From Takakia lepidozioides (lineage: Eukaryota; Plantae; Bryophyta), in the NCBI GenBank assembly GCA_030704615.1, contig CM060733.1:34348001-34412000 (forward strand): a stretch of DNA of 64,000 bases, given 5' to 3'. The stretch's first letter is position 1. Every line of letters begins with the position of its first letter. Positions 7,311 through 57,949 of this stretch are shown here, in pieces. The notes under the pieces are model-generated. The model was not told the DNA's origin. It worked only from the letters and a program-made list of their open reading frames with translations, and searched no databases. A program made the position numbers and the translations under genes.

Positions 7311-8201
7311 TTTAATAACGAACGTGGCAACCTGTTTGTACTAAAGTTTTCACCTAAATTGATTGTGGTGTGTGCAGCAAATTTGGATTTGAAGAACAGG
7401 GTCGACTTTTTGTCTCAGATGGTAGTGTTTCTCTTATGGTAGTGTTTCTCTGTATGCTTGTCCAACAGAGTCTCAGGGTGGATAGGTGCAAGTGGGCAAC
7501 TTGGAGGATGCCATGTAGAACACATAGATGAGGTGTTGTAGGGTGTAAAAAAGGGCTATCTTAAACGAGCGTATCGCATTCTCATATCCTGATGCAGTGG
7601 CCAAATATGGTAGGGCTCTTGGGCTCATATAACATGCTTGAACTCAATGTTGAATGTCTAGAGTGTCACGGAAATGTAGTGGCTCAGACGCGTGAGACCG
7701 AAGCACTTATTGGTATATAAGTGAAGTCCTTAACTCAAATCCTTATGGATTACATATATCTTTTGCAACATAAATATCTTTCCTTCCCCTTTTCCTATGG
7801 CAAGTTTAGATGTGTCATTTTGGTTCTTTATTTGTTTCCCTTTGCATCTCAAGTCCTAAGCTATTAAGATATTAATCAACCTAGTCTGCTCCTAGAATAT
7901 AAATGCTTTTTTTATATCCCCATGCATTTAGGATATCGAAGACCCCTGGAAAATATATTATGTTTTTATTTATTAATTTTTTGCCTTTAAATCCCTTGGC
8001 CCATATTTGACTTCCCTCCTCGAAATTCAAAAATATAAATTCCCTCTTTATTACCCTATGAATTTTAAAAATATAATTTCCTTATTTGAAGTCCCATGGA
8101 GATATGTTAATTTCTCTATTTATTCTGTTTGCTTGCAATTCCCTGGGATATGAATTTCCCTCCTAACTTAATTCCTAGAACATAGATTCCCTCTTTATTT
8201 C

Positions 8202-17869: not shown

Positions 17870-18457
17870 ATCAAACTGCTCTATATATTATGTATTATTT
17901 TGAATTCTTCAATGGATTACATGCCCCTGCTCTAGAAAACCTTTTGTGCAATCTCTTACGTCACCCGATATTTATGTCATCCGATTTGGCTTATAGATTG
18001 CTGGTTCGTCCATAAATCATTTCTTGCGTGGATGAAGAAAGAGTTCCCATATATTTGTGTGCTATTTATTCCTGCAAATTGCACATCAAAGCTCCAACTT
18101 GCAGATGTCATTCTTCATCTGCTTTTGAAATGTGGTTTCACAACACCGTTCAAGCATGGTCGTGGTAGCATCAATTCAATATCAATTGAGAATGGTGTCT
18201 AAATGTTCAGCTTGATCTCAGAATAGGTACACTACGTAAGAAGTTGTGTACTTGGCTTCTGGATACTTGGAAAGTTGTGGGATGTCAGACAGAGATAATT
18301 GTGAAAGGGTGGGGCAAGTGTGGGTTGTTGATGGCATTTGACAAAGGTTTTAAGCAGAGGCTATGGAATCAAATGCACATGCTTCCTTGTTTTCCAACTT
18401 GGAGGACGGTTGTGAAGATATTCATGAACAACAAGACATGGAGGAGTTGTTTGAAGA
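17870..18457 (+). mobile_element. pogo/Tigger-like DDE transposase relic, target of DNMT-Gypsy copy 1 (resumes at 29789)
   Basis: FIPANCTSKLQLADV and IVKGWGKCG resemble DDE_1 motifs; removing the insertion and one AAGA restores GAGGAGTTGTTTGAAGATCATGGATAT (EELFEDHGY). Confidence 0.6.
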
Positions 18458-19964
18458 TGTCAAGTTATTTTACCACTAGTGTGAAACTAGCTAGGAAATA
18501 GCTAGCTTTTACATATTGACATTTGGGATTGGCCCAAGTGTCAATCCAGGGGTCAAGGCAGATTTAGGCCCTGGAGTGGTTATCTTCACGGCAAGCGTGG
18601 AGGCTCATCTTTCTCGAGTTGAGCCTCACCGCGCCTAGCTATGGCGCCGTAGTGTGGATTCCCCATGGCGTGGGGTGCACTTGGCTTGACTTGTATTTGA
18701 GTGATGAGGTTATATATGCATGAGTTTATGCTTCGGCTTTGTGAGCTCGCATGAGCTTGTGCTTGTATTCTTCCTCTTTATCACTCGAGAAAGATGAGCT
18801 CGTATCTATGAGTGCTAGATACGAGTTAGTTGTAGCACTTGTGGTTTTTGCTTGAGAATGAGAGAAACCAAGTTGTTATGCAAGGAGCACCGTGGAGCTC
18901 TTGGTTGTTAGAAGCGGAGGCGATGTGGGTTACGAGGTGGTAAACCTTGGCATTCGATCTTCAGCTTCAGAGATGAAAGCACCATACTGCAGGACCCAAG
19001 CGAAAGGGCTATTGGCTTGGGGCAAATCAGTGCACTTTGTGGAGTATGGTGAGATTGGGTTTCAATCCGAGCTTCAGCATTGAGAGGGCTCTTTCATGGC
19101 GCGAGAGGGCAGGGTTGTGGAACAAGAGCTAAGAGGTGCGGCAAGGCCATGGAATGTGCACCTAGGGTTACAGAGCTTGGAAGAAGAGCTCTTGCACCAC
19201 AAGAGAAGTGTCTTGTGGCTGGAAATGTAAGCCTTAGGGTTTCAGGAGCTTGGCAAAGGCTATGGAGTGCTTAGTCTTGTCATAGAGAGCATCAAGGAGC
19301 CAAGGAGCCAAGATAGGGGGCTGATATCTCTTGTGTGAAGAGGTTGCATGTGTGGAGCATGTATTCAGCTCATTGAAAGCTTCACTTCAAGCTTGGAGGG
19401 CAAGCAAGGAAGAGGGAAGGGCTGACTTCCTTTTATGTGAGGGCAATGTATGTGGGAGCATGCCTTCAGCCCATTGAGGCTCTTGTTTTCAAGCCTTAGA
19501 GAGCTAGAACGGAAGGTCTAGGGCTGGTTTCCACTTGGAGTGAAAGAACAGCACTTGTAGGGCCTATGTGAGTTGGGGTTTCAACTTCAAGCTTGAAGGG
19601 AGCGCAACTCTTGAAGCAACAGGTGTAGAGGGCTGGAATAGTCTCTAAGACAGATGCTATGGCCAAGGAGAGTGCTTGAATGAGTGCTCACAAGGGCTGG
19701 GAACCAGCAGGGCTTGGTTGTTTGCCATTGAGTTTAGTGGCGTGTTTGGGTAGGCTAAGTGAGAAAGAAGGCTTGGTTTGTGGCAACCACCTCATGGCTT
19801 AGGGCTACTATGGTGGTGTGTGGGAGCCGAAAGAGCAAGGATACCTTGCTGATTTCTCACAGCCACCATAGCTCGGTGGAAAGAAGCCTAGAGTCCAAGA
19901 GACACAAACCCTAGCTTGGCGTGGCTAAACCCCTTGGAGAAATGGCTAAACTGCCAGAGCGGCC

Positions 19965-21800
19965 ATGGTGGGGCTGTGGGGAGGTGTGTGCTGTGGGTGT
20001 GTGTGACAGGGTTTGTGGTGGCGAGCATGGTGTGTGACGGGCTTGTGACGGGCTGTGACAGGCTGTGGCAAGCGATGGGCTTGACAGGCTGTGCCCTGTG
20101 CCCTGTGGGGCTGTGACGGGCTGTGTCAGGCTGTGACAGGCTATGCCCGTGGCCTTTTGGGCTGTGACGGGCTGTGCGGGGCTGTGTGACAGGCTGTGCC
20201 TGAGGCCTGTGGGGGGCTGTGACGGGCTGTGACAGGCGGCGTGCCTGAGGGCCTTTGAGGCTGTGTGTGAGGGGCTGTGAGGGGCTGTGACAGGCCGTGC
20301 CAAGGCCTTTGGGCTGTGGTGTGCGGGCTGTGAGGGCTGTGACAGGCCGTGCCCATGGCTTTGGGGCTCTGACGGGCTGTGAGGGGCTGTTGTGACAGGC
20401 CGTGCCTGAGGCCTTTGGGGCTGTGAGGGGCTGTGACAGGCCCTGCCGAGGCCTTTGGGGGCTTGTGACAGGCCGTGCCTGAGGCCTTTGAGGCTGTGAC
20501 GGCTGGAGGGCTGTGAGGTGTGGTGACAGGGCGTGCCCTGGCTTTGGGGCTGTGACGGGGCTGTGAGGGGCTGTGACAGGCCGCGCCTGAGGCCTTTGGG
20601 GGCTGTGATGGGCTGTGAGGGGCTGTGTGACAGGCCGTGCCTGAGGCCTTTGGGGCTGTGATGGGCTGTGACAGGCCGTGCCTGAGGCTTTGGGCTTTTG
20701 ACGGGCTGTGAGGGGCTGTGAGGGGTGTGACAGTCGTGCTGAGGCCTTTGAGGCTGTGACGGGCTGTGACAGGCTGTGCCATGGCCTTTGGGGCTGTGAC
20801 GGGCTGTGACAGGCCGTGCCCATGGCCTTTGGGGCTGTGACGGGCTGTGAGGGGCTGTGACAGGCCGTGCCTGAGGCCTTTGGGGCTGTGGTGTGATGGG
20901 CTGTGAGGGGCTGACTGTGACAGGCCCTGCCTGAGGCCTTGGGGCTGTGATGGGCTGTGACAGGCCGTGCCTGAGGCCTTTGAGGCTGTGTGTGACGGCT
21001 GTGACAGGCCGTGCCCATGGCCTTTGGGGGCTGACAGGCTGTGACGGGCTGTGACAGGCCGTGCCTGAGGCCTTTGGGCTGTGACGGGCTGTGAGGGGCT
21101 GTGACAGGCTGTGACACGGTTGGTGCTGATGGCCTTGGGGCTGTGATGGGGCTGTGACAGGCCGTGCCTGAGGCTTTGAGGCCTTTGAGGCTGTGACGGG
21201 CTGTGAGGGGCTGTGAAGGCCGGCCCAAGGCTTTGGGGCTGTGCGGGTGTGTGTGATGTGGCTGTGACGGCTGTGAGGGGCTGTGACAGGCCGTGCCTGA
21301 GGCCTTTGGGGCTGTGACGGGCTGTGAGGGGCTGTGACAGGCCGTGCCTGAGGCTTTGAGGCTGTGAGGGCTGTGAGGGCTGTGACAGTCCGTGCCTGAG
21401 GCCTTTGAGGCTGTGACGGGCTGTGAGGGGCTGTGTGCAGGCCGTGCCCATGGCCTTTGGGGCTGTGGACGGGCTGTGAGGGGCTGTGACAGGCCGTGCC
21501 TGAGGCCTTTGGGGCTGTGACGGGCTGTGAGGGGCTGTGACAGGCCGGGCTGAGGCCTTTGGGGCTGTGATGGGCTGTGACAGGCCGTGCCATGGCCTTT
21601 GGGGCTGTGACGGGCTGTGTTGGACAGCGCGCCTGAGGCCTTTGGGTCTGTGACGGGCTGTGAGGGCTGTGACAGGCTGTGCCTGAGGCCTTTGGGGCTG
21701 TGACGAGCTGTGAGGGGCTTGTGTGACAGGCTGTGCCCAGTGGCCTGTGGACTGTGACGGCTGTGACCAGTGAGCTGTGTGGGCTGTGCTGGTCTGTGGT
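19965..21800. repeat. G/T-rich minisatellite in the 5' leader of copy 1
   Basis: Iterated GGGCTGTGA(C/G) and CAGGCCGTGCCTGAGGCCTTTG units. Confidence 0.95.
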
Positions 21801-24800
21801 GGCCCGTTGACCTGTGGATGGCCTGTGCTGACTCGTGGAGGCACTGGTGGACTAAGGACTGGCATGTGGTCTGGAAGGCCGAATTTTGAAGCTCGTGGAG
21901 GGCGGTTGAGGAGTATCTTCATGATATTCCCATGGTCATGCAAGTCAGGTGTAGGCTATGTTAGGAACTTAGTATTCCAAACCATAAGCCGCAACAGGTT
22001 CTCTACCCGGTTACCTTGTGGAGAGGGGGTTAGGGACATGTTCATGACCGGTTGAGTGTCAACACGGAGGTGCCACTAGTTGCTGGGGACAGTGCCGGTT
22101 CGAGCACTAGCGATACTAGTGGGTACACGAGACGAGGTGTGCGGTTTAGGCCACCTTCACCTCCTGTGTCTTCCACGGAAGGTTCTGATTCGGATTGTGA
22201 ATCAGGAGGGCTCATACCGGCGGTGCAAGTTGTTTCTTTGCCATTGTTGTGGGACACAATGGAGGAGATGTATGGAGCTACCAAGGGGCCACGAAGGTAC
22301 TCTGGGGCGGTGGGCACCATTGAGTTGGATGATTTTATCCAAGAGTTTGATAGTTGGTGTGATTTGCAGCAAATGCGCAATCCACAACTATTTACGCCGT
22401 TCATGGCATGGAAAGGGCTGTTTCAGCACCTTGAGGGGCCGCCTATGGATGATTACCATGAGTTCAGGCGGGGGCATGAGGTTGAGATCGAGGAGTGGAG
22501 GATGTACTGGTCACCCGACTATGTCTCCATCACTAGGGGCACTAGAGCCACGAGGGCAGTGTGGCTACACCTGCCGCTGCACCGGCAGCTTCAGCAAGCA
22601 GCAGTGGGACTGGTGGTACAGTAGCTACGACGTCCACCCAAGCCACTACCGCACCAGCACTAGCACCCGTGCCTGCCTTCAACCCTGTTGTGGAGTTCTT
22701 CGAAGAGTTGAGAGGGAACTACCAAGGGGTGAGGACAGAGAAGTTGCGGAGCTTGCAAGAGTTCCAACGGAAGCCGACCGAGAGCTTGAGGGAGGCTTTC
22801 ACTCGCATGAGGCGCTTGATAAATGTAACCCAAGGGGTTACGGAAGCTCAGGCAGTCCAATTCTGGTATGGGATATTGGACAAGGAGCTGAGGAGAAGGG
22901 TGCGGGATGCAACTCTCCTACAAGCGGCCCAACCCACCTTAGCAAATGTGTTTTTGCTGGCAGAGCGGATAGAGCTCAACATGGTGGAGGAACGAGTGGT
23001 CATGGTGGGATTTGCTAAGGAGACACCACGGGGTAGTGGTGCTCCTAGCCAACCACTACCTCAACGTGCTCAAGGCAACAAGGGGGCTCAGGTGAAGCTC
23101 AGGGAAGGGCAGAGAGGACCTCAGATGCAGGGGTCTCTCCCTTCATTTGCTGGCCAACAACGGGCGGATGTGGTGTGCTGGACATGTGGAGGACCCCATG
23201 TCAAGAAGGATTGTCCAGAGGGAGGCAAAGGGCGGCACATGCACAGCCTGCACAGTTACAGTGTGGGCATTGTGGCAAACACGGGCATGGAGAGGCTCAG
23301 TGTTATGGTTTGCATCCTGAGTTGCGCCCAGGCCAGTTCCAAGGGAACAATGGTGGCCGGGGGCGAGGTGGAGCAGCCCAGAGGGACGAGGTGGCCAGCC
23401 ACGAGGTGCAGGCCAAGGGCAAGCTCAACGTGGCCAAGGACGCGGAGGTCAGGGTGTTGACCAAGGCATGGCCAACCGGCTTCAGCAGCTAGAGCAGAGG
23501 CTCGCTGCCATGGCTACAGCTCAGGTGGTACCGGCTCTAAGGCCGGATGGTCCACCTCCTGCTCCTGAGGGAGGAGATATGGGAGGCATGGGATTCATGT
23601 GTGGAGCAGCACTACCACTAGTGCAGGTGGAGTCTGCTGCAGCCGTGACTCGAGGAGCAGCACGAGTTCCTGAGCCACGAGGTGCAGAGGTGGAGTTGGA
23701 TCCACAGCGTGGGGAGGCAAGCCGTCAGGCTAGGCTTCCTCAGTCATTCACATTGGCGGAGACAGTGTCGACGCCATCCATGGCACCTAGTTCTCGCCCG
23801 ACTGTTACCGAGGCGGAGGTTACTATGCCATTATTGGGGAGAGCTACACGGGTAGCACCACTACCTAGTGTTGCCAAGGCTACGGCAGCTAGTGTGCTGC
23901 TAGGAGCGGCCACATCTGTGTGCCAGGCTCCATTGTTCTCGGCTACCATGATTGCGACGCCGGGGGTAAGACCAGCTGAGGTGTTCAGGCTGGCAGCTAC
24001 ACTCTGTGAGAGTGGGGAGGTTACTTCATCTTCTGCGGAGATAGTGGGAGGTGTAGTGCCGGAGGGATCCTCGGATTTGAGGGTCAAGACTGCCACGGCG
24101 GCGCCATGGCAAGCTGCAGCTGCCAGGTTGATGGAGCTGCCAGCTAGGCCAGCCATTGAGCGCGCCATGGTGACACCTGGAGTTGTCATGTTAGACAACC
24201 AGGATGGCATTTTCTGTTTGAGTGGACCGGCAGGCAAGAGGTACCGGCCACTGCGAGTCTTGTTGGACTCGGGAGCTCAGCCACTGATGCTGGGCAGAGC
24301 TGCTATTGCAGGCTTGGGCCTCACGGAGGCGGATATGGAGCCTTGTCCTTTCCAGATACAGACGTCTCTGGGAGGATCGGAGCAGGCTCGGGGCATGACA
24401 CGGCATGAGTTGGCTATCAGACTACGGCCGGATCACCCTATAGATGGCTCAGTGATGCGAGCCAAGGCCATTGTGACAGACGCAGTCTCATACGATGTCT
24501 GGTTGGTGGGGCAGTGTTGTACCCATGGGCTTCACTGGATTTTGGGAGGAGTCAGATCCTATAGGCCTGCATGGCCAGTCAGGGGAGGGCCGGCGTGTGC
24601 AGCTCCCTGTGACGTTCATAGGAGGAGTGCGGTTGCCCAGCGAGCAAGTGCCGACACTAGCAGCATTCACAGCGGCAGTGAGTTGGCTAGAGAGTTGCTT
24701 GAGGGCAATGCTCATTCAGAGGATGACCACCTCCGGGAGAGAAGAGATGACATGTATGGTATGGCGGAGTTGCCTACCATGGTTGCTCAGACTCCATTGT

Positions 24801-24959
24801 GGGGCACGAACAAGGATTTGCAGCGGGATGCTGATCGACGGGTGCAACAAGCCTGGGTGGAGGCTTTTGTACCGTCAGGAGAGGAGGAGGTGTGGGGGAT
24901 TGCACCAGGACCACCTCAATTGTCTCCATTGGACACCACACCTATTGTGTGGCAGTCTC

Positions 24960-25925
24960 CGGATGAAGGCATTTGTCTTCTGGACTTGTTTGGCGGGATC
25001 AGCACCGATTGGCTGCTGTGTGTTACAGGCAGGTGTACGAGTTCGGCGTTACATATATGTGGAGAGGGATGAGACTGCACGACGCGTTTCACTTCGCATG
25101 TTGCTTAGTTGGCAGCGGTACCCTGAGTTGTTGTCGGTGTCTGCAATTCGTGGATATCAGCAGGCCTTGCCAGCAGACATTTCGTTGCTGGGGGTGCAGG
25201 ATTGGAGCGGGTTGGCTCCATTGATCTGGTAGTGGCAGGTTGGCCCTGCCAAGGGCATTCATCAGCCGGGCATGGCAATGGATTGCGAGACTCGAGGTCG
25301 GGTCTGTTTGGGAGATGGTACGGGTTTTGCGCCACTTGCAGCTTCATCAAGCTGTATCTCCAGCATACATCTTGGAGAATGTGCCACTGATGGGCGATTC
25401 TCGGGCCAGGGTGATGGCCAGTGTGCATCAAGTCGGTCGTGGCTTGGGACAGCAGTGTTGCTAGATGCAGCTACAGTGGGGTCACGGGCTCATCGTCCAC
25501 GGCTATGGTGGACTAAAATGATGCCACCCGCACTGCTCAAGCGGTGCATTTGATGGGGTGCAGCGGCCAGCACAATCTCACAGTGGATAACATTCTGGAC
25601 ACAGGGAGGCAGTCTCAACGTGTGAGACACGATGACCGTTCGCCTTTGGCAGTGGTCAACAAGGTGGGTCAACCACGAGCAGCATTACCTACACTGCTCA
25701 GCTTCCCAGGATCGCATGCTTTCCGGGATAGTGGACCTGGCCTCCTGTGGGATGCTCAGTTGCAGCAGTTAGTGGAGCCTAATGCTGACGAGCGTGAGCG
25801 GGCAATGGGTTTTACCACTGGTACCACGGCGGTGTCGTCTCTTTCTGAGGCATCACGTCGTCAAGTGTTGGGGCAAGCAATGGATCTCAATTGCTTGACC
25901 TGGATTATCAGCTTGGCTCTAGCTG
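24960..25925 (+). pseudogene. C5 cytosine DNA methyltransferase domain (DNMT3-like) within pol, copy 1
   Basis: Motifs in order: I LLDLFGGIS, II YVERD, IV VVAGWPCQG, VI ILENV, VIII RAHRPRLWW, IX ERERAMGF, X RRQVLGQAM; split by 1-nt indels. Confidence 0.9.
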
Positions 25926-28900
25926 AGCAACGCAGAGTGCGGAATACACTTCCCTCAATGGTCTCTCTCCTACCGAGACGGTACAGGCAGTGAGTGGGGG
26001 CGAGCATATGAGGACCACGGGGGTGCATGCATCCATGGCACACGTGGGAGGTGCTCGAGGTTCAGAGGGAGTTGGCAGCCAAGGCGGCTGTGATGGATGA
26101 GGTTGGGGATTCTTCTCGAGTTGAGGAGGTCCTCAAGGATGAGATGATGGGGCAGGATGATGCCTTGTCATGACTGAGCAGGTAGGGAGTACTGCTCAAG
26201 AGGTTGCAGCATAGCAACCACGGGACGCGTCCTCTACCTCTAAGCCCACTGGACTTAAGGTTGTAGTTATGGAGGACAATTGGGAGCCTGAATTGGACCC
26301 ATTGTCACCGGAGGAGAGAGACGACGTATACGGCGGTTCCTGAGGGCTTACAGGAATTGCTTTGCCTTCAGTTTGAAGGACTTGGAGCACTGAAGGGTCA
26401 AGAGATCCGTATTGAGTTGGCCACTGACACGCCAATCTTTCGGAGACCCTATAGATACAGTGACATGGAGAGGTCTTTGATTCAGATGAGGACTCAAGAT
26501 CTCTGGGAGGTAGGTTTGGTGGAGCTCTCTGGTGGAGAGTATGCTTCAGCCACAATGATGCCAGCCAAGAAGGATGTCTATGGCAATTGGACGGAGAGAC
26601 GTATGTGCGGTGATTACCGGCCTGTAAATCGTCAGACCGAGTCCGATAAATATGCCATGCCAACACCAGAGGAGATCTTTGATGCCATCGGGCATGCTAG
26701 GCCTTTAGCACTTTGGATTTACGATCCGGATATCACCAGTTGCCAATCAAGGAGGCGGTCAAGCAGAAGACGGCATTCTGGGGGATCAATGAGCACGGCA
26801 AGGATTGCCTATATCAGTGGGCGGTTCTTACCATTTGGGCTTAAGAATGCTCCTGCAGAGTTTCAGAGAGTCATGGATAGGATTCTAGCAGGGGTGGTGG
26901 ACTTTGCTCGGTGCTACATAGATGACATCATCATCTTTAGTGTACGATGGAGGAGCATGAGAGACACCTTCAGGTGGTATTGGAGCGCTTGAGAGCGCAC
27001 GGATGAAGTTGCATCCGGGGAAGTGCAAGTTTTTCCACAACCAGATTGAGTAATCTGGGTCACATGATATAATCCTGGAGGATTGGGGGTACAGCAGACT
27101 AAGGTAGAGGCCATTGCACAAATTCCACGCCCCACGGATGTGAGCCGAGTTCGAGCTTTCATGGGGTTGGCAAACTATTATAGACGGTTTGTCAAGGGAT
27201 TTAGTACCATTGCAAAGGCTCTAACCAAGCTGACCAAGATGGACCAGGAGTGGCAGTGGGAAGATGAGCAGGAACGAGCTTTTCAAGAGCTCAAGGCGAG
27301 GTTGACCTCGGCGCCTATCTTGAGACGACCTATCAGGGGGCGTCCCTTTCAGCTGCATACGGATTGGAGCATGCTGGGGCTTGGAGCGGTGCTCACACAG
27401 GTGGATGATGAGGGAAGAGAGTTGTAGTGGCTTACACTAGCCGCTCGAACAACGCTGCAGAGGCTAAGTACAGCTCATATGAGGGAGAGTGCTTAGCTGC
27501 AGTGTGGGCCGTGGCACACTTCAGGTGCTATCTATACGGCAATCTTTCACCCTTGTCACAGATCACCAGCCACTCAAGTGGTTGATGGAGTCAGACAAGC
27601 TTACGGGGAAGCTTGCACGGTGGGCACTTATACTCCAGGAGTATGACTTTCAGGTTGTGCATCGACCGGGTTTGGTTGGTCATCGGGATGCGGATGGATT
27701 GAGTCGCAATCCATGCATGAGCCAGCAGGATGACACTGGAGCTCAGTGGCATGGTGAGACGGACGAGGAGATGGTGCCGGGATGGCACGCATCTGCTTTT
27801 TTGTGTATCTTGGCATCGGGAGGTCAGATTGGACCTACAACAGGGATGACTGTAGACGGAGTGTCTGAGGACCCTGAGGCTAGTGATGAGCTAGGTGGTG
27901 CCAGAGATATACATGAGGATTCGGCTGTGTTGGACTACCTCCGCACGGGAGACACGGCAGCCATTGTGACTGCCAGGGAGAGGGATCGGATCCTGCAACG
28001 AGCCAAGAGGTTCAAGTGGGAGGGATACACCTACTCGAGTGTGGGAGGATGGTCGGGTGAGGATTGTGCCTCACCCACAGAGCGTGCACGGTTAGTGCGG
28101 CATGCCCATGAGGAGTTGGGGCATTTTGGAGTGCGACGCACTCACAGTACTGCAGGGCAGGGCAGTATTGGTGGCGTGGTATGCATACAGAGGGTGCAAC
28201 AGTTTGTGGCTAGGTGCATGGTGTGTGACAGGGTGCGTGCTTCATTCAACGCCCCTACACCACAGTTGCATCCTTTACCAATCATGGGATTGGGCTACAG
28301 GTGGAGTCTTGACTTCGCAGGACCGTTGCCACTGACTATGCGCCACCACAGATATGTGTTGGTGATGGTGGAGCACTTCTCCAAGTGGATTGAGTTGGTT
28401 CCATTGCCTGACAAGGCTAGTGAGGGGGCTGCGTATGCATTCTTGGATCGTGTGCTTAGCCGATTTGGTGCTCCAGCTGAGGTACTCACGGACCAAGGGA
28501 GAGAGTTCTTGGGGGAGTTTCAGGCTTGGTGTGATAAAGCCTTGATAGACCACCGCACCACTTCTCGGGATCATCCTGAGGCCGATGGCTTAGCAGAGAG
28601 AGTTGTTCAGACGGTGAAGAGGGGTTTGCGCAAGTATGGCTTGCAGAAGGGACACCTAGGAGATTGGGATCTTCAGGTCCTTGGTTAGCCATGGGCTACA
28701 GGTCAGCAAACAAGCATCACTTGCCTCCTTCTCACCATATTTCCTTCTCTTTGGCCGAGAGCCGGATTTGCCTGCAGCCATTCGTAGGGACACTGCTCAA
28801 GTCCTTAACCTTGACAATCCGGACGTGTGGGTACGTGCATGTGATCAGCGTGCAGAGTGTGTTCAGAAAGTCATGCCCATGGCTTTTGAGAACCTTGCCA

Positions 28901-29204
28901 TTGCACAGCACCGTGATACGTTGAGGTATGCCACTATACGTGGTGGAGGATATCGTCCTGGGGTTCGGAGGTTTAGCCCTGGTGACTATGTTTATTTGCA
29001 GCAGACTGCTCCTACGACTCTGGATGTTACTGCAGGGCGTGTGTTATTCTGAGGTTCGAGAGGTGTTGCCCTCAGGGGTCCTGATCTTGGAGGGTCGGGA
29101 TGGCATGACTTGGAAGGACCATGTGCGTAATTGTGCGCCATGTCACCTTCCAATGTCGATGGCAGAGTTGACCCAAACTTGGCAGTGGTACCTGCAGGTT
29201 GAGG

Positions 29205-29338
29205 TGCATGCTCTGTGGGTCTGCCAAAGGGGCAGCCACCATGGTGGTGTGTGATCGATGCTCAAGGGGTTGGCATATGGGATGCTTGACACCACCTCTT
29301 GAGAAGGTCCTGACGGAGATTGGTTGTGTCCACACTGC
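29205..29338 (+). other. PHD finger at the integrase C-terminus, copy 1
   Basis: CMLC...CDRC..GWHMGC...(frameshift) WLCPHC, a C4HC3 pattern; intact in copy 2. Confidence 0.85.
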
Positions 29339-32300
29339 TTGGGATAGTGGCAGTGGACATGACTGGAGGCAGCTAACAAGACATGGGAGGCCAAGCTCAT
29401 AGGAGTCAATACATGAGATCCCAAGCTCAAGTTCACAGGTTGCAAGACGGCGACTAACGATGGGGCAACTCTTGCACCCGGCCTCTTGATCTATCGAGTT
29501 TGAGTGTAGTAGGGATAGTGGTGGAGGACTTAGTGAGGCTATGGTCACTATCACATCTTGTGGCTACCTGGACTTAGAGGGACCTAAGCACCAGCTAGGG
29601 GGGCGATTGTGTGGACTAGTGATTGCCATAGTGGGCAGCGTAGTGGCAGCCTAGTGACTGACTAGTTGTAGGCCTAGTGGTTGGACTAGTGGAGACTAGT
29701 GGTTATACTAGTGTGTGGTATGCACATGTGTTGTGTGGTTTTGGACAGCGATGTAGTTGTGTAGCGATATGTATGCGCACGACAAAGATCATGGATATGA
29801 TGCTCCAATGTGCTATGAGTGAAGCTTGAAGTGCACTAGGTTTAGTTGCTAGTTGATAAGTGGATTCAGATTTGTATTTTCCATTTTCAAACCACTTGTC
29901 TTCTATTTGCAGGTTACAACCCTACTGACCACCCCAACCCATTCTATCGGCAATTGCAATACACATGTACCTACATCTCAGATTCTGTGACTCATTTCAT
30001 CACTTATGTACAACAATATTATGGAACATATGCCCTGATCTCACTACAATCTGCTACACGACTATGACAAAGCAAAACTCCTTAACGATAAGGAATGGGC
30101 GCGCCAGGCAACTTACCCTGCGGGGTCACCAGCGGCTTGCCCATTCCCTAATATGTAAAGAATTTTCAAAATGAAAGTGCCTTGCCAGTCTGGCAAGGAG
30201 CGTTACGGAGATTATAAGCCACTCGCGCGAGGTGCTTACACTCCGTAAGCCATTCTAGCAACGTGGCACTATATTCCATGAAATAAGCCCACTGGAAATA
30301 CAAAGGATTGTTTTTGGAAATTCGTAGGGGGATGTTCCCGATGGTACATTGGGCTCCGCAGATTGCGGTGAGAGAGCTGGGGACTTAGTTTTTTTTCCCC
30401 AAGCTCTCTCCCGCTGATGCACCCTGAACCCCTCTCCCAATCTGACGTGAACTGAAGCTAGGTGCAGCTTTCAGTAACTCCTCAAGACAGATATGACGTC
30501 TTGACGTCTTGATGGCAATGCCCTAACCCCTCTTTCTCTCTAATGAACAAATAGAAATTTGCTCCATCCTCACGTTTTCCCCTTCTCCCTTCTCTCTTCC
30601 TACCGCGGGCATCCCCTCTCTCCCTGCTATCATCCACAAGCTCCCTCCTCTGATCTCTACTGCCATTTATGGGCCGCCATTGCACGCCGCAGCACGTCCT
30701 CCCAAGTTCACATAATATGTCGCTCCTTATCTCTGCAGAAGCCGCCATCCTCTGCAAAGTATTTAAGAGCACAATTATATTTGTTGCAATCCCCATCTCA
30801 TGGCGACAACCCCCTCTCCTCGTGCAGCGAGAAAGTATGCGGTGTTGAAAAGGCCAATGTCGGCGATTTTACTTCCGCATGCTTAGATCCTGGCGGCTTT
30901 CTAATTTCCAGCCGCCGAAAGCAGGAAAGTGATCAATTCCCTCGGCTCCTTATCCTGTCTTTTCTCTCAGCTGATAAGGCTCTCAGCACTCTTACCGCTT
31001 ATTCACCTTGCCCCTTGGTTGCTTAGCTGTTTCAGTTTCTCTTCTTTTCCCTGAAAGTCTTATCAGTGACTCTATAGAAAGATCAGGAGAGGGGAAAGAG
31101 GTTCTCTCTGCTCACTTGTGCCAGGTGTTGGGCTGACGTCTCTCTCTTAGCTAGGCCGCAAAAATGAGCTCTCGAGGCACCACAAGCAAAAGAGGGAACA
31201 AGGGGAGCTCAGCAATGCGCAGCAGCTCAGCGCTCACTGCCAAAGGAGGAAAGACTTCTTGGATAATAAAAAACAACACCAACTCTATCGGCTCAGGGGA
31301 TTCAATTTTGGGCAAAGGCCCGAGTCCCACCATCAATGCACAATCCCCTTCTCGGACGAGGGGGTGTGGGAAGACCATCCCTCAGGATGTCCCTGATCAG
31401 CCTGTACTAAAGTTGGATACAGAAAAGCTCAAATTGCAGACGCAGAAGCTAACCCTAAGGGGGGTTCTAATCTATTTCCCAGGGAAGCTAAAGCCAAGGG
31501 ATCACAGTAAGAAGATGGATTGTACAACACTTAGGTGCTGGCGGGAGGCTGGCTCAGACTTTTGCCTTTCGATGGGAAGGGGGTTCTACTTGGCCCTTTT
31601 TTGCCTCACAGAGGGACTGGGGTCATAGGCAAGGGATTTTGTGGAGACCAAGGGTGATAGTAATTCCTTACCTCCCTGCCACTTACCTAATGTCGCTTCC
31701 AGAAATTGGTGCCAGTTTTGGCACCTTTATTGGTTCCCTGAATGTCGTCGAACAAGTCCAGGACAACATCAAGAGTGTCGACAACGAGGCGATTCATGTT
31801 GACCTCGCAAAAGACGTCGGAGTGTTAAAGATTGTAGTCCTCATGCTGGAGTCCAAATCGATTGGGTCTCCAATCAAGCTCCCCAGGTGGACGATTCCTA
31901 CATCGTTATCTCAATCAAGGAGGAGCTCATCTCCACAATTTGCTTTTTGTGCAACGGAGAGGGTCACATTCGGGCCAACTACCCGAAGCTGCGCAAAAAC
32001 AGGCTTTCGAAAGTTTCCAAGCAGCCTGCTATACCAAATGACAAGACAACTCCTCAATGAGAACTTCATCGCCAGGTGCCATTGTGGGAGACAACCAGCA
32101 AGTAAACTCGGAGTTGTTACACAGGGGCCACACTGCCAAAAAAAGGAAGCATGAAGGGAACGGGACGACTGGAATCCATCTTAACCGCCCATACGATCTG
32201 GCCCCGGTCAGAATCCCAAAAGCATGGACTTCCTACCCATTCTCAGAACAAGAGTTGAATCCTTTGGAGAGCAACAGCCTCGCCATTGCATTTTTGGAGC

Positions 32301-34764
32301 TGCATTCATTCTCAAGGAGGCCTCTAGCAGGGTGGGCTCCCGGGACTGCCTATGCCAAAGACAGGGCAACAGTCTGTGTAACCCCCCTCATTTACAAATT
32401 CTTTGACGACTACACAAACTTTTTGTCCCTAACAGCAGAGAAGGCTTCTGCTCTGCATGGGTCACTGAAGCCTTGGCCGCAGATATGTTTGGTGGACCAG
32501 CATTGACTTCGCTCTCCACTTGACAAACCAAGTGCTCAGGGAGTTCTTCCCCCCCATATCCATCTCTCAAACTCGCATGCAGCACATAAGCGTTATGGTT
32601 GAGAATAATGCTGCTCTTGTCAATTTGGCAGTCATCCACGTGCTACCCATTTTCAAATTTGAAGACCCGGCTGCCGCTGACGACCCTATATTTGGAACTT
32701 GGGGTGGACAAGTTTGGCCTTTCTTGCAAGGTTGTTGATCCCAATGCATGGGCTCGCAGCTCTGTCATCATGGAAGAAGGGCTGAAAATGGTGGTTGAAC
32801 TCTCTAGCATGCAGAAACAAAAAGCCCCGACTATTGTGGACTCAATCAACACTGAGGACAAAGAGCCCAACAAGGAGATGGTGCTCTACAATCAAGACCA
32901 CATGCTGCTCTCTTCCAATGAGGCCCACAAATGCACAGATTTGGTCCAGCCAGAGGAGACAATGGACTCACCACCGGCGGTAAGTGTCAAGTTATTTTAC
33001 CACTAGTGTGAAACTAGCTAGGAAATAGCTAGCTTTTACATATTGACATTTGGGATTGGCCCAAGTGTCAATCCAGGGGTCAAGGCAGATTTAGGCCCTG
33101 GAGTGGTTATCTTCACGGCAAGCGCGGAAGGCTCATCTTTCTCGAGTTGAGCCTCACCGCGCCTAGCTATGGCGCCGCAGTGTGGATTCCCCATGGCGTG
33201 GGGTGCACTTGGCTTGACTTGTATTTGAGTGATGAGGTTATATATGCATGAGTTTATGCTTCAGCTTTGTGAGCTCGCATGAGCTTGTGTTTGTATTCTT
33301 TTTCTTTATCACTCGAGAAAGATGAGCTCGTATCTGTGAGTGCCAGATACGAGTTAGTTGTAGCACTTGTGGTTTTTGCTTGAGAATGAGAGAAACCAAG
33401 TTGTTATGCAAGGAGCCCTGTAGAGCTCTTGGTTGTTAGAAGCGGAGGCGATGTGGGTTACGAGGTGGTAGACCTTGGCATTCGATCTTCAGCTTCAGAG
33501 ATGAAAGCACCATGCTGCAGGTAATTCCAGAGCACCTTGATGGTTTCAGATTGTGTACATGCATGAGCAATCACGATTGGGAAGAGGACCAGTCAAGAGC
33601 AGGTTATAGTGGCTTTGGTGGCAAAGCTGAGAACTGGACTTGGGAATGCGAGCTTTCATTGTGTGAAGGATTGCAAGACCAAGCGAAAGGCTGATTTGGC
33701 TTGGGGCAAATCAATGCACTTTGTGGAGTATGGTGAGATGGGTTTCAATCTCGAGCTTCAGCATTGAGAGGGCTCTTGTCATGCAGGAAGAGCAGGGCTA
33801 GAACAGGAGCTAAGAGGTGCGGCAAGGCCATGGAATGTGCACCTAGGGTTTCAGAGCTTGGAAGAAGAGCTCTTGCACCACAAGAGAAGTGTCTTGTGGC
33901 TGGAAATGTAAGCCTTAGGGTTCCAGGAGCTTGGCAAAGGCTGTGGAGTGCTTAGTCTTGTCTTAGAGAGCATCAAGGAGCCAAGGGAGCCAAGATAGGG
34001 GGCTGATATCTCTTGTGTGAAGAGGTTGCATGTGTGGAGCATGTATTCAGCTCATTGAAGCTTCCATCTTCAAGCTTGGAGGGCAAGCAAGGAAGTGGGA
34101 AGGGCTGACTTCCCTTATGTGAGGGCAATGCATGTGTGGAGGCATGCTTTCAGCCTGCTGAAGCTTGTATTTTCAGGTTTGTGGGTGCAAGAAATGAAGC
34201 AAAGGAGCTGATTCTCTTATGGTGAGAGTGGGGCATGTGTGGAGCATGCCTTCAGCCCATTGAGGCTCTTGTTTTCAAGCTTTAGAGAGCTAGAACGGAA
34301 GGTCTAGGGCTGGTTTCCACTTGGAGTGAAAGAAAAGCACTTGTAGGGCCTATGTGAGTTGGGGTTTTCAACTTCAAGCTTGAAGGGAGCGCAACTCTTG
34401 AAGCAGCAGGGTGTAGGGGCTGGAATAGGCTCTAAGATACATGCTATGGCCAAGGAGAGTGCTTGAATGAGTGCTCACAAGGGCTGGGAACCAGCAGGGC
34501 TTGGTTGTTTGCCATTGAGTTAGTGGCGTGTTTGGGGGTGTTTGGGGAGGCTAAGTGAGAAAGAAGGCTTGGTTTGTGGCAACCACCTCATGGCTTAGGG
34601 CTACTATGGTGGTGTGGGGAGTCGAAAGAGCAAGAATACCTTGCTGATTTCCTCACAGCTGCCATAGCTCGGTGGAAAGAAGCCTAGAGTCCAAGAGACA
34701 CAAACCCTAGCTTGGCGTGGCTAAACCCCTTGGAGAAATGGCTAAACTGCCAGAGCGGCCATGG

Positions 34765-36060
34765 ATGGGCTGTGAGGGGCGTGTGTTTGTGACAGGCTGT
34801 GCCCATGGCCTTCGGGGCTGTGTGACGGGCTGTGAGGGCCTGTGACGGGCTTGCCCGGTGGCTTGGGGGCTGTGATGGGCTGTGCCCAGTGGCCTGTGGG
34901 GCTGTGACGGGTTGTGAGGGCTGTGTGACAGGCTGGTGCCCATGGCCTTTGGGGCTGTGATGATGTGAGGGCCTTACTGGGTGTGGCTGGGGGCTGTGAC
35001 AGGCCGTGCCTGAGGCCTTTGGGGCTGTGACGGGGCGTGTGACGGGCTGTGTCAGGCCGTGCCTGAGGCTGTGGGGCTTGTGACAGGCTGTGCCCAGTGG
35101 CCTGAGGGGCTGTGTGACAGGCTGTGCATGGCCTTTGGGGCTGTGATGGGCTGTGAGGGGCTGTGACATGCCGTGCCTGAGGCCTGTGGGGCTGTGTGTG
35201 ACGGATGTGCAGTGGCCTGAGGGGCTGTGTGTGAAAGGCTGTGCCCATGGCCGTGGGGGGGTTGTGATGGGCTGTGAGGGGCTGTTGGTTGTGACATGCC
35301 GTGCCTGAGGCTGTGGGGCTGTGGGGTTGTGACGGGCTGTGAGGGGCTGTGACAGGCTGTGCCCAGTGGCCTGGGGATGTGGGCTGTGATGTGATGGGCT
35401 TGTGAGGGGTGTGACAGGCGTGCCTGAGGCATTGGGGATTGCTGCGTGTGTTGTTGGTGTGTGACGGGCTGTGAGGGGCTGTGTCAGGCCGTGCCTGAGG
35501 CTTGTGGGGCTGTGACAGGCTGTGCCATGGCCGTTGGGGCTGTTGTGTGATGTGGGTATGAGGGCTGTGCTGTTGACAGGCCGTGCCTGAGGCCTTTGGG
35601 GCTGTGACGGGCTGTGAGGGGCTGTGACAGGCCGTGCCTGAGGCCTTTGGGGTTGTGACGGGCTGTGAGGGGTATGTCAGGCCGTGCTGAGGCTTGTGGG
35701 GCTGTGACAGGCTGTGCCCGTGGCCGTGGGGCTGTGACGGGCTGTGAGGGGCTGTGACAGGCTATGCCCGTGGCCTTTGGGGCTGTGAGGGGCTGTGACA
35801 GGCCGTGCTGAGGCCTTTGGGGCTTGTGTGACGGGCTGTGAAGGGTGTGACGGCTGTGTTAGGCCGGGCCTGAGGCCTTTGGGGGCTGTGAGGGGCTGTG
35901 CGAGCTCTGTGTGAAAGGCTGTGCCCAGTGGCCTGTGGGCTGTGATGGCGTGTGTGTGCGGGGCTGTGACAGGCGTGTGGGGTGTGAGGGCTTGGCCCAG
36001 TGGCCTGTGGGACTGTGAGGCTGTGACCAGTGAGCTGTGTGGGCCTGTGCTGGTCTGTGT
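34765..36060. repeat. G/T-rich minisatellite in the 5' leader of copy 2
   Basis: Same GGGCTGTGA-type units as 19965-21800, shorter array. Confidence 0.95.
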
Positions 36061-39000
36061 TGGCCCGTGTTGACCTGTGGACGGCCTGTGCTGACTCGTG
36101 GAGGCACTGATGGACTGCCTAAGGACTGGCATGTGTCTGGAAGGCCGAATTTTGAAGCTCGTGGATGGCGGTTTGAGGAGTATCTTCATGATATTCCCAT
36201 GGTCATGCAAGTGAGGGAGAGAGGAGAGGAGAGTGTTGGGATGAGGGCATGCTGGGGTTAGGCATTGCTTTAGCTTCTCTTCTCGTAGTTTCCACCCTCT
36301 CATTAGGCCAAGACCTTTCCGTAGGTGGAGGCAAGAGTCAGTCCGGGTTTGGGCTGGGGTGTCCTTGCAGGAGCAACACCGTGGAGTTGTTTTTGGTGTG
36401 GGGGAGTTGTCGTTCTGATTTCTTGTGTTTGGATCCCCTCCATACCTGCATGCTTGACTGTGCGCCATGCTAGTTTTGTGTGGGCGCTTGTTTTTATAGG
36501 TGATTGGTCCGGATTTGATCACCGGCCAGTCCTAGAGCATGCTGTCGATGGTGAGGTTGGGTGATGACCAGCCAGACCATCATTGTTTCTCCTGTGGTGA
36601 GGTTGGAGGTGATGACCAGCCAACCATAGGAGTGCTTGCGGTGGATGCAGGTACAGGTGTAGGCTATGTTAGGAACTTAGTATTCCAAACCATAAGCCGC
36701 AACAGGTTCTCTACCCGGTTACCTTGTGGAGAGGGGGTTAGGGACATGTTCATGACCGGTTGAGTGTCAACACGGAGGTGCCACTAGTTGCTGGGGACAG
36801 TGCCGGTTCGAGCACTAGCGATACTAGTGGGTACACGAGACGAGGTGTGCGGTTTAGGCCACCTTCACCTCCTGTGTCTTCCACGGAAGGTTCTGATTCG
36901 GATTGTGAATCAGGAGGACTCATACCGGCGGTGCAAGTTGTTTCTTTGCCATTGTTGTGGGACACAATGGAGGAGATGTATGGAGCTACCAAGGGGCCAC
37001 GAAGGTACTCTGGGGCGGTGGGCACCATCGAGTTGGATGATTTTATCCAAGAGTTTGATAGTTGGTGTGATTTGCAGCAAATGCGCAATCCACAACTATT
37101 TACGCCTTTCATGGCATGGAAGGGGCTGTTTCAGCACCTTGAGGGGCCGCCTATGGATGATTACCATGAGTTCAGGCGGGGGCATGAGGTTGAGATCAAG
37201 GAGTGGAGGATGTACTGGTCACCCGACTATGTCTCCATCACTAGGGGCACTAGAGCCACGAGGGCAGTGGCTACACCTGCCGCTGCACCGGCAGCTTCAG
37301 CAAGTAGCAGAGGGGACTAGTGGGACTGGTGGTACAGTAGCTACGACGTCCACCCAAGCCACTACCGCACCAGCACTAGTACCCGTGCCTGCCTTCAACC
37401 CTGTTGTGGAGTTCTTCGAAGAGAGTTGAGAGGGAACTACCAAGGGGTGAGGACAGAGAAGTTGCGGAGCTTGCAAGAGTTCCAACGGAAGCCGACCGAG
37501 AGCTTGAGGGAGGCTTTCACTCGCATGAGGCGCTTGATAAATGTAACCCAAGGGGTTACGGAAGCTCAGGCAGTCCAATTCTGGTATGGGATATTGGACA
37601 AGGAGCTGAGGAGAAGGGTGCGGGATGCAAACTCTCCTACAAGCGGCCCAACCCACCTTAGCAAATGTGTTTTTGCTGGCAGAGCGGATAGAGCTCAACA
37701 TGGTGGAGGAACGAGTGGTCATGGTGGGATTTGCTAAGGAGACACCACGGGGTAGTGGTGCTCCTAGCCAACCACTACCTCAACGTGCTCAAGGCAACAA
37801 GGGGGCTCAGGTGAAGCTCAGGGAAGGGCAGAGAGGACCTCAGATGCAGGGGTCTCTCCCTTCATTTGCTGGCCAACAACGGGCGGATGTGGGTGTGCTG
37901 GACATGTGGAGGACCCCATGTCAAGAAGGATTGCCCAGAGGGAGGCAAAAGGACGGCACATGCACAGCCTGCACAGTTGCAGTGTGGGCATTGTGGCAAG
38001 CACGGGCATGGAGAGGCCCAGTGTTATGGTTTGCATCCTGAGTTGCGCCCAGGCCAGTTCCAAGGGAACAATGGTGGCCGGGGGCGAGGTGGAGCAGCCC
38101 AGAGAGGACGAGGTGGCCAGCCACGAGGTGCAGGCCAAGGGCAAGCTCAACGTGGCCAAGGACGCGGAGGTCAGGGTGTTGACCAAGGCATGGCCAACCG
38201 GCTTCAGCAGCTAGAGCAGAGGCTCGCTGCCATGGCTACAGCTCAGGTGGTACCGGCTCTAAGGCCGGATGGTCCCACCTCCTGCTCCTGAGGGAGGAGA
38301 TATGGGAGGCATGGGATTCATGTGTGGAGCAGCACTACCACTAGTGCAGGTGGAGTCTGCTGCAGCCGTGACTCGAGGAGCAGCACGAGTTCCTGAGCCA
38401 CGAGGTGCAGAGGTGGAGTTGGATCCACAGCATGGGGAGGCAAGCCGTCAGGCTAGGCTTCCTCAGTCATTCACATTGGCGGAGACAGTGTCGACGCCAT
38501 CCATGGCACCTAGTTCTCGCCCGACTGTTACCGAGGCGGAGGTTACTATGCCATTGGGGAGAGCTACACGGGTAGCACCACTACCTAGTGTTGCCAAGGC
38601 TACGGCAGCTAGTGTGCTGCTAGGAGCGGCCACATCTGTGTGCCAGGCTCCATTGTTCTCGGCTACCATGATTGCGACGCCGGGGGTAAAACCAGCTGAG
38701 GTGTTCAGGCTGGCAGCTACACTCTGTGAGAGTGGGGAGGTTACTTCATCTTCTGCGGAGATAGTGGGAGGGTGTAGTGCCGGAGGGATCCTCGGATTTG
38801 AGGGTCAAGACTGCCACGGCGGCGCCATGGCAAAGCAAGCTGCCAGGTTGATGGAGCTGCCAGCTAGCCAGCCATTGAGCGCGCCATGGTGACACCTGAG
38901 TTGTCATGTTAGACAACCAGGATGGCATTTTCTGTTTGAGTGGACCGCAGGCAAGAGGTACCGGCCACTGCCGGGTCTTGTTGGACTCGAGAGCTCAGCC

Positions 39001-39689
39001 ATTGATGCTGGGCAGAGCTGCTATTGCAGGCTTGGGCCTCACGGAGGCGGATATGGAGCCTTGTCCTTTCCAGATACAGACGTCTCTGGGAGGATCGGAG
39101 CAGGCTTGGGGCATGACACGGCGTGAGTTGGCTATCAGACTACGGCCGGATCACCCTACAGATGGCTCAGTGATGCGAGCCAAGGCATTGTGACAGACAC
39201 AGTCTCATACGATGTCCTGGTTGGTGGGGGGCAGTGTTGTACCCCATGGGCTTCACCCTGGATTTTTGGGAGGAGTCAGCTTCCTATAGGCCTGCATGGC
39301 AGTCAGGGGAGGGCCGGCGTGTGCAGCTCCCTGTGACGTTCATAGGAGGAGTTGCGGTTGCCCAGCGAGGCAAGATGCCGACACTAGCAGCATTCACAGC
39401 GGCAGTGAGTTGGCCTAGAGAGTTGCTTGAGGGCAATGCTCATTCAGAGGATGTACCACCTCCGGGAGAGCAGGATGACATGTATGGTATGGTGGAGTTG
39501 CCTACCATGGTTGCTCAGACTCCATTGTGGGGCACGAGCAAGGATTTGCAGCGGGATGCTGATCGACGGGTGCAACAAGCCTGGGTGGAGGCTTTTGTAC
39601 CGTCAGGAGAGGAGGAGAGTGTGGGGATTGCACCAGGACCACCTCAATTGTCTCCATTGGACACCACACCTATTGTGTGGCAGTATCCG

Positions 39690-40680
39690 GATGAAGGCAT
39701 TTGTCTTCTGGACTTGTTTGGCGGGATCAGCACCGGATTGGCTGCTGTGTTACAAGCAGGTGTACGAGTTCGGCGTTACCTGTATGTGGAGAGGGATGAG
39801 ACTGCACGACGCGTTTCACTTCGCCATGTTGCTCAGTTGGTGCAGCGGTACCCTGAGTTGTTGTCGGTGTCTGCAATTCGTGGATATCAGCAGGCCTTGC
39901 CAGCAGACATTTCGTTGCTGGGGGCGCAGGATTTGGAGCGGGTTGGCTCCATTGATCTGGTAGTGGCAGGTGGCCCTGCCAAGGGCATTCATCAGCCGGG
40001 CATGGCAATGGATTGCGAGACTCGAGGTCGGGTCTGTTTTGGGAGATGGTGCGGGTTTTGCGCCACTTGCAGCTTCATCAAGCTGTATCTCCAGCATACA
40101 TCTTGGAGAATGTGCCACTGATGGGCGATTCTCGGGCCAGGGTGATGGCCAGTGTGCATCAAGTCCGGTCGTGGCTTGGGTCAGCAGTGTTGCTAGATGC
40201 AGCTACAGTGGGGTCATGGGATCACGGCTCATCGTCCACGGCTATGGTGGACTAACTTGATGCCACCCGCACTGCTCAAGCGTGCATTTGATGGGGGTGC
40301 AGCGGCCAGCACATCTCACAGTGGATAACATTCTGGACACAGGGAGGCAGTCTCAGGTGTGAGACACGATGACCGTTCGCCTTTGGCAGTGGTCAACAAG
40401 GTGGGTCAACCACGAGCAGCATTACCTACACTGCTCAGCTTCCCAGGATCGCATGCTTTCCGGGATAGTGGACCTGGCCTCCTGTGGGATGCTCAGTTGC
40501 AGCAGTTAGTGGAGCCTAATGCTGACGAGCGTGAGCGGGCAATGGGTTTGGTACCACGGTGTCACCTGGTACCACGGCGGTGTCGTCTCTTTCTGAGGCA
40601 TCACGTCGTCAAGTGTTGGGGCAAGCAATGGATCTCAATTGCTTGACCTGGATTATCAGCTTGGCTCTGGCTGAGCAACG
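39690..40680 (+). pseudogene. C5 cytosine DNA methyltransferase domain (DNMT3-like), copy 2
   Basis: LLDLFGGISTGL...YVERD...IDLVVAG continuous in ORF 39234..40121; then PCQG, ILENV, ERERAMG and RRQVLGQAM in shifted frames. Confidence 0.9.
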
Positions 40681-43610: not shown

Positions 43611-43978
43611 AAGAAGAATACAAGCACAAGCTCATGCGAGCTCACAAAGCTGAAGCATAAACTCATGCATATATAACCTCATCACTCAAATACAAGTCAA
43701 GCCAAGTGCACCCCACGCCATGGGGAATCCACACTACGGCGCCATAGCTAGGCGCGGTGAGGCTCAACTCGAGAAAGATGAGCCTTCCGCGCTTGCCGTG
43801 AAGATAACCACTCCAGGGCCTAAATCTGCCTTGACCCCTGGATTGACACTTGGGCCAATCCCAAATGTCAATATGTAAAAGCTAGCTATTTTCTAGCTAG
43901 TTTCACACTAGTGGTAAAATAACTTGACAGCTGTCGTGCACATACATATCGCTACACAACTACATTGCTGTCCAAACC
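43611..43978 (-). other. Inverted captured fragment spanning the element's 3'-end/5'-end junction
   Basis: Minus strand reads the element's last ~47 bp (...CACGACA), then GC, then its first ~320 bp (TGTCAAG...); absent from copy 1. Confidence 0.9.
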
Positions 43979-57816: not shown

Positions 57817-57949
57817 AAAACTAGAAAGATCTCTTGGGAAGGGAGCAAGAGGTCCATCATCTACCAACCCTACTTCTTCTATTCCAATTCAAGGTGTTTT
57901 ATCTACTAACTTTAAAGCTTTGCATTGTCCTCTCAGTAGACAGACTATT

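Follow-up and report, generated by a model that had tools for sequence, protein, structure and literature searches.

A 64,000-nucleotide stretch of Takakia lepidozioides contig CM060733.1 (hereafter the window) holds two copies of a Ty3/Gypsy retrotransposon, and both almost certainly encode a DNMT3-like cytosine-5 (C5) methyltransferase domain. We propose a methyltransferase expressed under a readthrough arrangement, methylation of the element's cDNA and integration from a circle cut at a palindrome, and we give this whole explanation a probability of roughly 55%. The concept of a methyltransferase-bearing Gypsy element has already been published; the range of the family, a conserved stop codon and a split long terminal repeat (LTR) go beyond it.

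A DNMT3-like domain between protease and reverse transcriptase

The domain lies at 24950–25930 in copy 1 (element at 18458–29784) and at 39678–40678 in copy 2 (32985–45023), all on the forward strand. The original prediction, made from the letters of the window alone, had read C5 methyltransferase motifs in order in both copies. We located motifs I–X, unpermuted and with the catalytic PC, ENV and the motif VIII Arg: in copy 1/copy 2, LFGGI starts at 24986/39714, VERDE at 25059/39786, PCQG at 25244/39974, ENV at 25375/40106, RxRLWW at 25494/40233, ERAMG at 25796/40533 and GQAMD at 25871/40619. The domain sits between a protease motif (24260/38978) and the YIDD motif of reverse transcriptase (RT; 26915/41657) in both copies. 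Single-frame pieces exceed the 22-bit cut-off of PF00145 at 39956–40249 (37.6 bits, E 2.3e-9) and 25127–25384 (27.2 bits, E 3.3e-6), while the same profile had no match on the 28 long open reading frames (ORFs) of the window. In both copies the domain is spread over several frames with 0 in-frame stops: frame breaks occur near 25013, 25204, 25308, 25433, 25545 and 25573 in copy 1, and near 39970, 40226, 40296, 40358 and 40567 in copy 2. A profile built from six intact relatives, with the window excluded, nevertheless spans positions 21–328 of 330 in copy 1 and 3–328 of 330 in copy 2, and identity to the intact methyltransferase of relative L009 is 66% and 70%, respectively. Chance motifs were rejected as the source of this signal. 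An assembly chimera was also rejected, the domain standing ahead of RT in 60 of 81 related loci (19 of the others end at most 600 nt from the RT start and two are internally deleted); several loci are one insertion in different assemblies, and such counts overstate independence.

Ranked against solved proteins, the domain profile placed DNMT3A first (E 1.4e-17), followed by weaker matches to a DRM-type entry (4.7e-7), HaeIII and HhaI (1e-5 to 4e-5), DRM2 (3.7e-5) and DNMT2 (about 1e-3). Fold comparison was run on the intact L009 domain rather than the broken window copies; its predicted structure (pLDDT, a per-residue confidence score, of 93) had DNA-bound DNMT3A as top match, with a template modelling (TM) score of 0.73. 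By profile and by fold the domain is thus nearer DNMT3 than DRM, DNMT2 or bacterial enzymes, in agreement with the DNMT3 affinity first proposed for it. PCQ, ENV, H184 and R187 are invariant in at least 90% of 70 sequences. A third, decayed fragment had been announced at 632–952 (+) and is real: it shares 92–95% DNA identity, and comprises the linker and motifs I–II only; its motif I is altered, and it is interrupted by a stop at 907.

Judged by substitution rates, the methyltransferase is under purifying selection. Computing dN/dS (omega) had been suggested along with the original prediction, and it gave no sign of neutral decay between subfamilies: omega was 0.08–0.27 in the 11 between-subfamily pairs with finite dS, seven further pairs being saturated. 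Between the window copies and four intact relatives, pN was 0.16–0.34 and pS 0.74–0.82, with synonymous sites saturated. Within subfamilies omega rose to 0.62–0.90 (three pairs), as expected for decay after insertion. RT is more constrained than the methyltransferase (omega 0.03–0.04 in three intact pairs, with the RT values for L007, L010 and L033, spoiled by frame breaks, set aside).

Substitutions and indel events between the two copies number 13 and 15 in the methyltransferase domain (about 1% substitutions), 26 and 29 in RT-integrase and 26 and 32 in gag-protease. Because indels outnumber substitutions between the copies, the frame breaks suggest long-read error rather than age. Among the rows listed (113 rows lie outside them), contigs of four runs read differently from copy 1 at four of the six places where its domain is broken. 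The methyltransferase breaks are copy-specific, with no place shared against the nearest intact domain and the closest pair 12 nt apart, and RT has one place, near 26703, where both copies are broken. A shared programmed frameshift within the methyltransferase was rejected, no break being common to both copies against L009. Target duplications of 4 bp are intact around both, AAGA in copy 1 (18454–18457 and 29785–29788) and TAAG on each side of copy 2. Given these duplications and the divergence of about 1%, both copies are judged to be young and recently mobile, as had been claimed. The family is very high-copy: sequencing depth on the element exceeds that of the flank by a factor of hundreds to thousands (in run X3, 290,000–1,240,000 versus 219–578), a ratio that is no copy number and supports very high copy only.

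The other coding parts follow the Gypsy order. In copy 1, gag with zinc knuckles lies at about 22200–23500 (+; frames broken), on the basis of a weak PF03732 match (E 0.0022), a knuckle motif at 23262 and alignment to ORF1 of relative L081. An aspartic protease lies at about 24200–24560 (+), with LLDSGAQ at 24260; the corresponding profile, PF13650, matches weakly in intact relatives. RT, RNase H, integrase (H2C2 and rve) and a C-terminal PHD finger occupy 26328–29338 (+), with 19 frame breaks and 0 in-frame stops in the RT-integrase region; the PHD finger was scored on the equivalent region of copy 2 (E 2.9e-11).

A conserved stop codon behind the domain

The original prediction had placed the domain within pol, in frame with protease and RT. 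The order and the RT frame stood, but a conserved in-frame stop divides the domain from RT. It reads TAG CAA CCA, a readthrough-type hexamer behind the stop, at 26212–26220 (+) in copy 1 and at 40959–40967 (+) in copy 2. Walking upstream from RT in the 81 related loci and the two window copies, we met a stop in 74 rows, and in 50 of these a stop followed by CAR stands at a fixed place behind the domain. It is spelled TAG CAACCC in 32 rows and TAA CAACCC in 10; rarer hexamers after TAG are CAACCA (3), CAATCA (2), CAACTA (1), CAGTTA (1) and CAACTC (1). The remaining 24 rows comprise 15 from a second clade without the stop, three with apparent C>T decay of the stop and six with frame breaks or insertions, copy 1 included. 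The tobamovirus readthrough signal is given as UAG CAR YYA in the accessible part of PMC3542737, and this exact form occurs in 7 of the 50 stop-CAR rows, in four different spellings. In the intact relative L036, a Gag-protease-DNMT frame of 1369 codons ends at the stop and is followed by 1034 in-frame codons of RT-RNase H-integrase.

On this ORF structure, the domain in this clade is the tail of the Gag-protease ORF and not a plain Pol domain. RT-integrase is quite probably made by readthrough of the stop, and, given the conserved stop between methyltransferase and RT, the enzyme likely accumulates at Gag levels. The stop codon thus predicts that the methyltransferase is a major protein of the particle. 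The weak, uneven RNA structure 3' of the stop (z -0.6 to -2.7 with mononucleotide shuffles) was not used as support.

Split repeats and the route of integration

The elements have the TG...CA ends, the short target duplication and the DDE integrase after RNase H of canonical Ty3/Gypsy elements, and they lack direct LTRs at both ends, a departure that the original prediction overlooked together with the split repeats. A Ginger-like DNA transposon was rejected, RT being present. Copy 1 has the form A-coding-B, with ends TGTC...GACA and without a terminal direct repeat; no repeat joining its two ends was found at word size 7. Repeat A, the 5' terminal part of the split LTR, covers 18458–18783 (+), and at the equivalent position of copy 2, 33311, contigs branch. 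Repeat B, the 3' terminal part, covers 29606–29784 (+), and a contig of doubled depth starts at 29606.

The layout of the family is A-coding-B-GC-A-B, of which copy 1 retains A-coding-B and copy 2 is a rearranged form. Relatives display it directly, about 20 rows containing the junction and about 15 ending in a single B. Depths in run X7 (coding 75, B 142, A 133–157, junction 69) fit the same order. The end-to-start junction GACA-GC-TGTC was present in 4/4 runs in one contig survey and in 2/4 in another, in which the other two runs barely covered it. It also occurs, inverted, in the integrase tail of copy 2, where a piece at 43609–43976 (−) contains the last 45 nt of B, GC and the first 321 nt of A; the palindrome GACAGCTGTC lies within this piece at 43926–43935. 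Copy 2 has the same TGTC...GACA ends, and its 3' end (44700–45023, +) consists of the first 135 nt of B followed by one whole B. Inverted repeat-A pieces near 3' ends were also seen in relatives L013, L016 and L069, as in copy 2. The end region of such elements, these sequences suggest, rearranges often. Identical 4-bp flanks were found in seven of the eight loci with both ends readable.

Directly after A lies a predicted primer-binding site (18783–18799, +), and within A a predicted self-primer (18603–18619, +) is its exact 17-nt complement, a length that 0 of 30 control windows reached. Among 15 A1 repeats, 11 are followed by 10–17 nt complementary to sequence inside A, above all 30 control windows; the match failed in L010, L017 and L029 and was marginal in L044. 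The letters of the self-primer differ between clades, and L036 and L081 show the match by eye. A purine tract directly ahead of B (29597–29605, +), at the same place in relatives, is the predicted plus-strand primer. The repeat boundaries coincide with the purine tract and the primer site, and in two clades the A2|B2 joint falls at both. We infer from these boundaries that the unit placed at the ends by reverse transcription is B-GC-A. The true LTR is accordingly predicted to be B-GC-A, with the ends of the element at a palindrome within it.

Under the explanation that we favor, the RNA would start at the self-primer in A1 and end in A2, and standard LTR-route reverse transcription would yield (B-GC-A)-coding-(B-GC-A). 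The cDNA ends would then join, giving the A|B joint, and integrase would nick each strand of GACA-GC-TGTC behind its CA, with the customary 2-nt overhangs as the result. The full form would come from two-LTR circles, and an A-coding-B form like copy 1 from one-LTR circles or from B-B recombination at a later time. Cutting by integrase at the internal palindrome seems probable to us; that it goes through a circle is only somewhat better than an even proposition. Integration from a circle cut inside the LTR is not an established route for LTR retrotransposons. The closest comparison is the foamy virus, whose DDE integrase cleaves the palindromic 2-LTR circle junction in circular cDNA according to the accessible part of PMC1180852; there the palindrome forms at the LTR-LTR joint, whereas here it lies within each LTR and the joint would be left uncut.

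A linear route has perhaps one chance in four. Template switches onto the internal B-GC-A junction would rebuild the split repeats, as proposed for DIRS-type elements, and integrase would trim GC from two true ends without any circle. This route yields only the permutation that is observed, and both ends would bear CA-GC like normal retroviral ends. However, in two clades the end of A2 coincides exactly with the primer-site boundary and the start of B2 with that of the purine tract, as joined linear LTR ends predict, and template switching would match these boundaries by coincidence.

The substrate and purpose of the enzyme are the least secure part of the explanation. The enzyme may methylate the element's own cDNA, so that the new DNA passes as host-like or is protected while extrachromosomal, and we lean slightly toward cDNA as its main substrate. 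Action chiefly on host chromatin, or on the host's DNA where the element inserts, together with an integrase whose PHD finger reads histones, is unlikely but worth weighing: the PHD finger on the integrase, the DNMT3-type de novo fold and the presence of the enzyme in the RT-integrase chain in Klebsormidium and in the second clade fit it, whereas, because of the stop, most of the enzyme in this clade would be made without integrase. Still less likely, the enzyme would license integration: the two palindromes are identical and contain CAG/CTG, and methylation of one of them would shield it from integrase, so that only the replication-competent permutation arises. Such licensing would explain both a missing permutation and the joint occurrence of enzyme and split repeats here and in Klebsormidium; yet after strand displacement both palindromes would be expected to be equally hemimethylated, and C>T decay at the junction would also be expected from host methylation.

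Several observations weigh against our explanation. In its simplest version, the circle model calls for a further permutation, A-B-GC-A-coding-B; 0 of the 18 loci in which A1 is visible have it. Variation at the junction in run X3 consists mostly of C>T or G>A changes; the observed junctions are therefore chromosomal and not evidence of free circles. The A|B joint is clear in relatives and appears only in minor rows for the window family. CpG observed/expected (o/e) is 0.53 in the element, a depletion no stronger than in neighbouring enzyme-free elements (0.17–0.49). As to readthrough, the hexamer ends in C and not the optimal A in 43 of the 50 stop-CAR rows (CAACCC in 42); the CAACCC subfamily has an ATG two codons past the stop, making reinitiation possible there; and the stop is missing from the second clade and from the Klebsormidium protein, so not every lineage needs bulk expression. 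Finally, the Klebsormidium enzyme gave no methylation in yeast, a result that its authors call inconclusive in the accessible text of PMC5890265.

That inactivity in yeast would suit a domain retained for a structural or nucleic-acid-binding role in the particle, or one acting on RNA, as would its fusion to Gag-protease and its predicted high copy per particle. We regard this as improbable, since the catalytic Cys, ENV and the motif VIII Arg are conserved across the 70 sequences and DNMT3 far outranks the RNA enzymes of DNMT2 type (E about 1e-3 for the latter). A broader version of the favored explanation, in which a Gypsy lineage spanning the green plants has its circular cDNA cut by a DDE integrase at an intra-LTR palindrome while the element's DNMT3, at Gag level in the land-plant clade, methylates the circle and maybe chooses the palindrome, is tentative and rather doubtful.

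The layout revives an old question, whether circular cDNA can be the normal substrate of a DDE integrase, and is one possible account of split repeats in elements other than those with a tyrosine recombinase. LTR finders will miss such elements.

Relatives, known systems and neighbouring features

The proposal that a land-plant member extends the range of such retrotransposons held in part: the range does reach land plants, but the family, judged by its protein relatives, is old and widespread in green plants and not a local novelty. The integrase region matched 301 longer proteins. Of the 120 of these that were listed, the methyltransferase profile matches 56; among the 53 listed proteins that reach 1300 residues or more, it matches 49. 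Named algal carriers among the matches listed are Klebsormidium, Closterium, Pleodorina and Tetrabaena. Among 120 of 620 matches listed, the named moss and liverwort carriers are Sphagnum troendelagicum, S. tenellum, Calypogeia fissa, Marchantia polymorpha, M. paleacea and Riccia sorocarpa. Four chlorophyte polyproteins from Pleodorina and Tetrabaena (P0046, P0060, P0067 and P0105) match the profile with a best E of 5.8e-58; no catalytic motifs were found in these four with the motif patterns used.

In an RT-integrase tree, the window copies fall in an eight-row group with Calypogeia elements (SH-aLRT branch support 98). The tree holds 57 of 129 rows (61 excluded by coverage, the named chlorophytes among them, and 11 by thinning) and comes from a quick search; it is unrooted, with no outgroup, and its base does not resolve the grouping with the Klebsormidium element. 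None of 67 candidate stretches from viral contigs gave a relative. One of 38 stretches from prokaryote genomes did, L081, which lies in a cyanobacterial bin; its position among plant elements in the tree led us to read L081 as contamination from a plant, and it gives no support to a bacterial origin. In a single-piece homolog search 0 of 13 candidates held up, and a profile-free search gave seven matches, mostly out-of-frame translations.

The precedent in Klebsormidium that the original prediction had invoked exists. According to the accessible text of de Mendoza et al. 2018 (PMC5890265), KnitGypsy-Dnmt3 of Klebsormidium nitens is a Gypsy element with the domain in Pol, purifying selection and DIRS-like repeats; no mechanism for the repeats is offered in that text, and its main text does not contain the word PHD. 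A 2025 paper (PMC12344493) gives, in its accessible part, the same account for streptophytes and dinoflagellates, without bryophyte cases. The likeness is close, with Gypsy RT and integrase, an unpermuted DNMT3-like domain between protease and RT under purifying selection, and A-coding-B-A-B repeats, described there as DIRS-like. The Klebsormidium protein KFL_009030040 is a 47% match to the window integrase and has the order protease-DNMT-RT. In contrast to the window family, KnitGypsy-Dnmt3 has a single ORF for domain and RT, as does the second clade of loci, where here a conserved stop stands between them; the window family is also very high-copy and likely has a land-plant host.

SymbioDIRS-Dnmt3 likewise combines A-coding-B-A-B repeats with a DNMT3-like domain, which methylates CG de novo in yeast according to the accessible part of PMC5890265. 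DIRS elements use a tyrosine recombinase, whereas the window elements have a DDE integrase and 4-bp target duplications; among the ORFs scanned (selected, mostly of at least 100 codons), rve was found and no recombinase family. Tf1 and Tj1 have ordinary terminal LTRs and are without a methyltransferase, whereas here the stop follows Gag-protease-DNMT. They resemble the window family in self-priming (PMC4600332, accessible part), here predicted from sequence. Gypsy-7a_cRei of Chlamydomonas is another green-lineage Gypsy element with a PHD finger but, compared by description, has left and right LTRs, and its domain list in the accessible text names no methyltransferase (PMC9940879). In the literature searched, thin on subscription papers, theses and Repbase reports, no description was found of land-plant members, the stop or internal cutting.

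DNMT-carrying retrotransposons hence move from an algal curiosity to an old and abundant lineage that includes the model liverwort Marchantia and Sphagnum, and DNMT3 counts in bryophyte annotations include transposon copies. If the proposed activity is real, then at thousands of copies the element enzyme would give seed-free plants a second, dispersed source of de novo methylation.

The 5' leader of copy 1 contains a G+T-rich tandem array at about 19970–21830 (+), with units of about 10 and 40–50 nt. Both copies have such an array of about 2 kb, at 34760–36130 in copy 2, and it may be poorly assembled; its divergence between the copies far exceeds that of the coding region. Weak matches to the 5' part of the retrotransposon at 1380–1603, 2019–2084 (−) and 63050–63078 are probably old relics, and an RT fragment of a sister subfamily at 62541–62708 (−) has 77% identity to the element RT. 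Another Gypsy element at 4426–7414 (−) has RT, RNase H and integrase, and a methyltransferase was not found there. A long interspersed nuclear element with endonuclease and RT lies just past copy 2 at 45388–48214 (+). A different retroelement at 56338–59587 (+) carries, in order, a gag-like ORF, a protease-like piece, a dUTPase (PF00692, E 5.3e-9) and RT, and is strongly depleted in CpG (o/e 0.17). A broken pentatricopeptide repeat (PPR) gene at 60300–61230 (+; PF01535, E 3.9e-7) has a motif pattern that resembles the PLS class of land-plant RNA-editing factors. Together with the tree placement beside Calypogeia elements, this gene indicates a land-plant host. At 51142–51663 (+), a short, weak match to a PGAP1-like alpha/beta domain (E 0.0018) is possibly a host exon.
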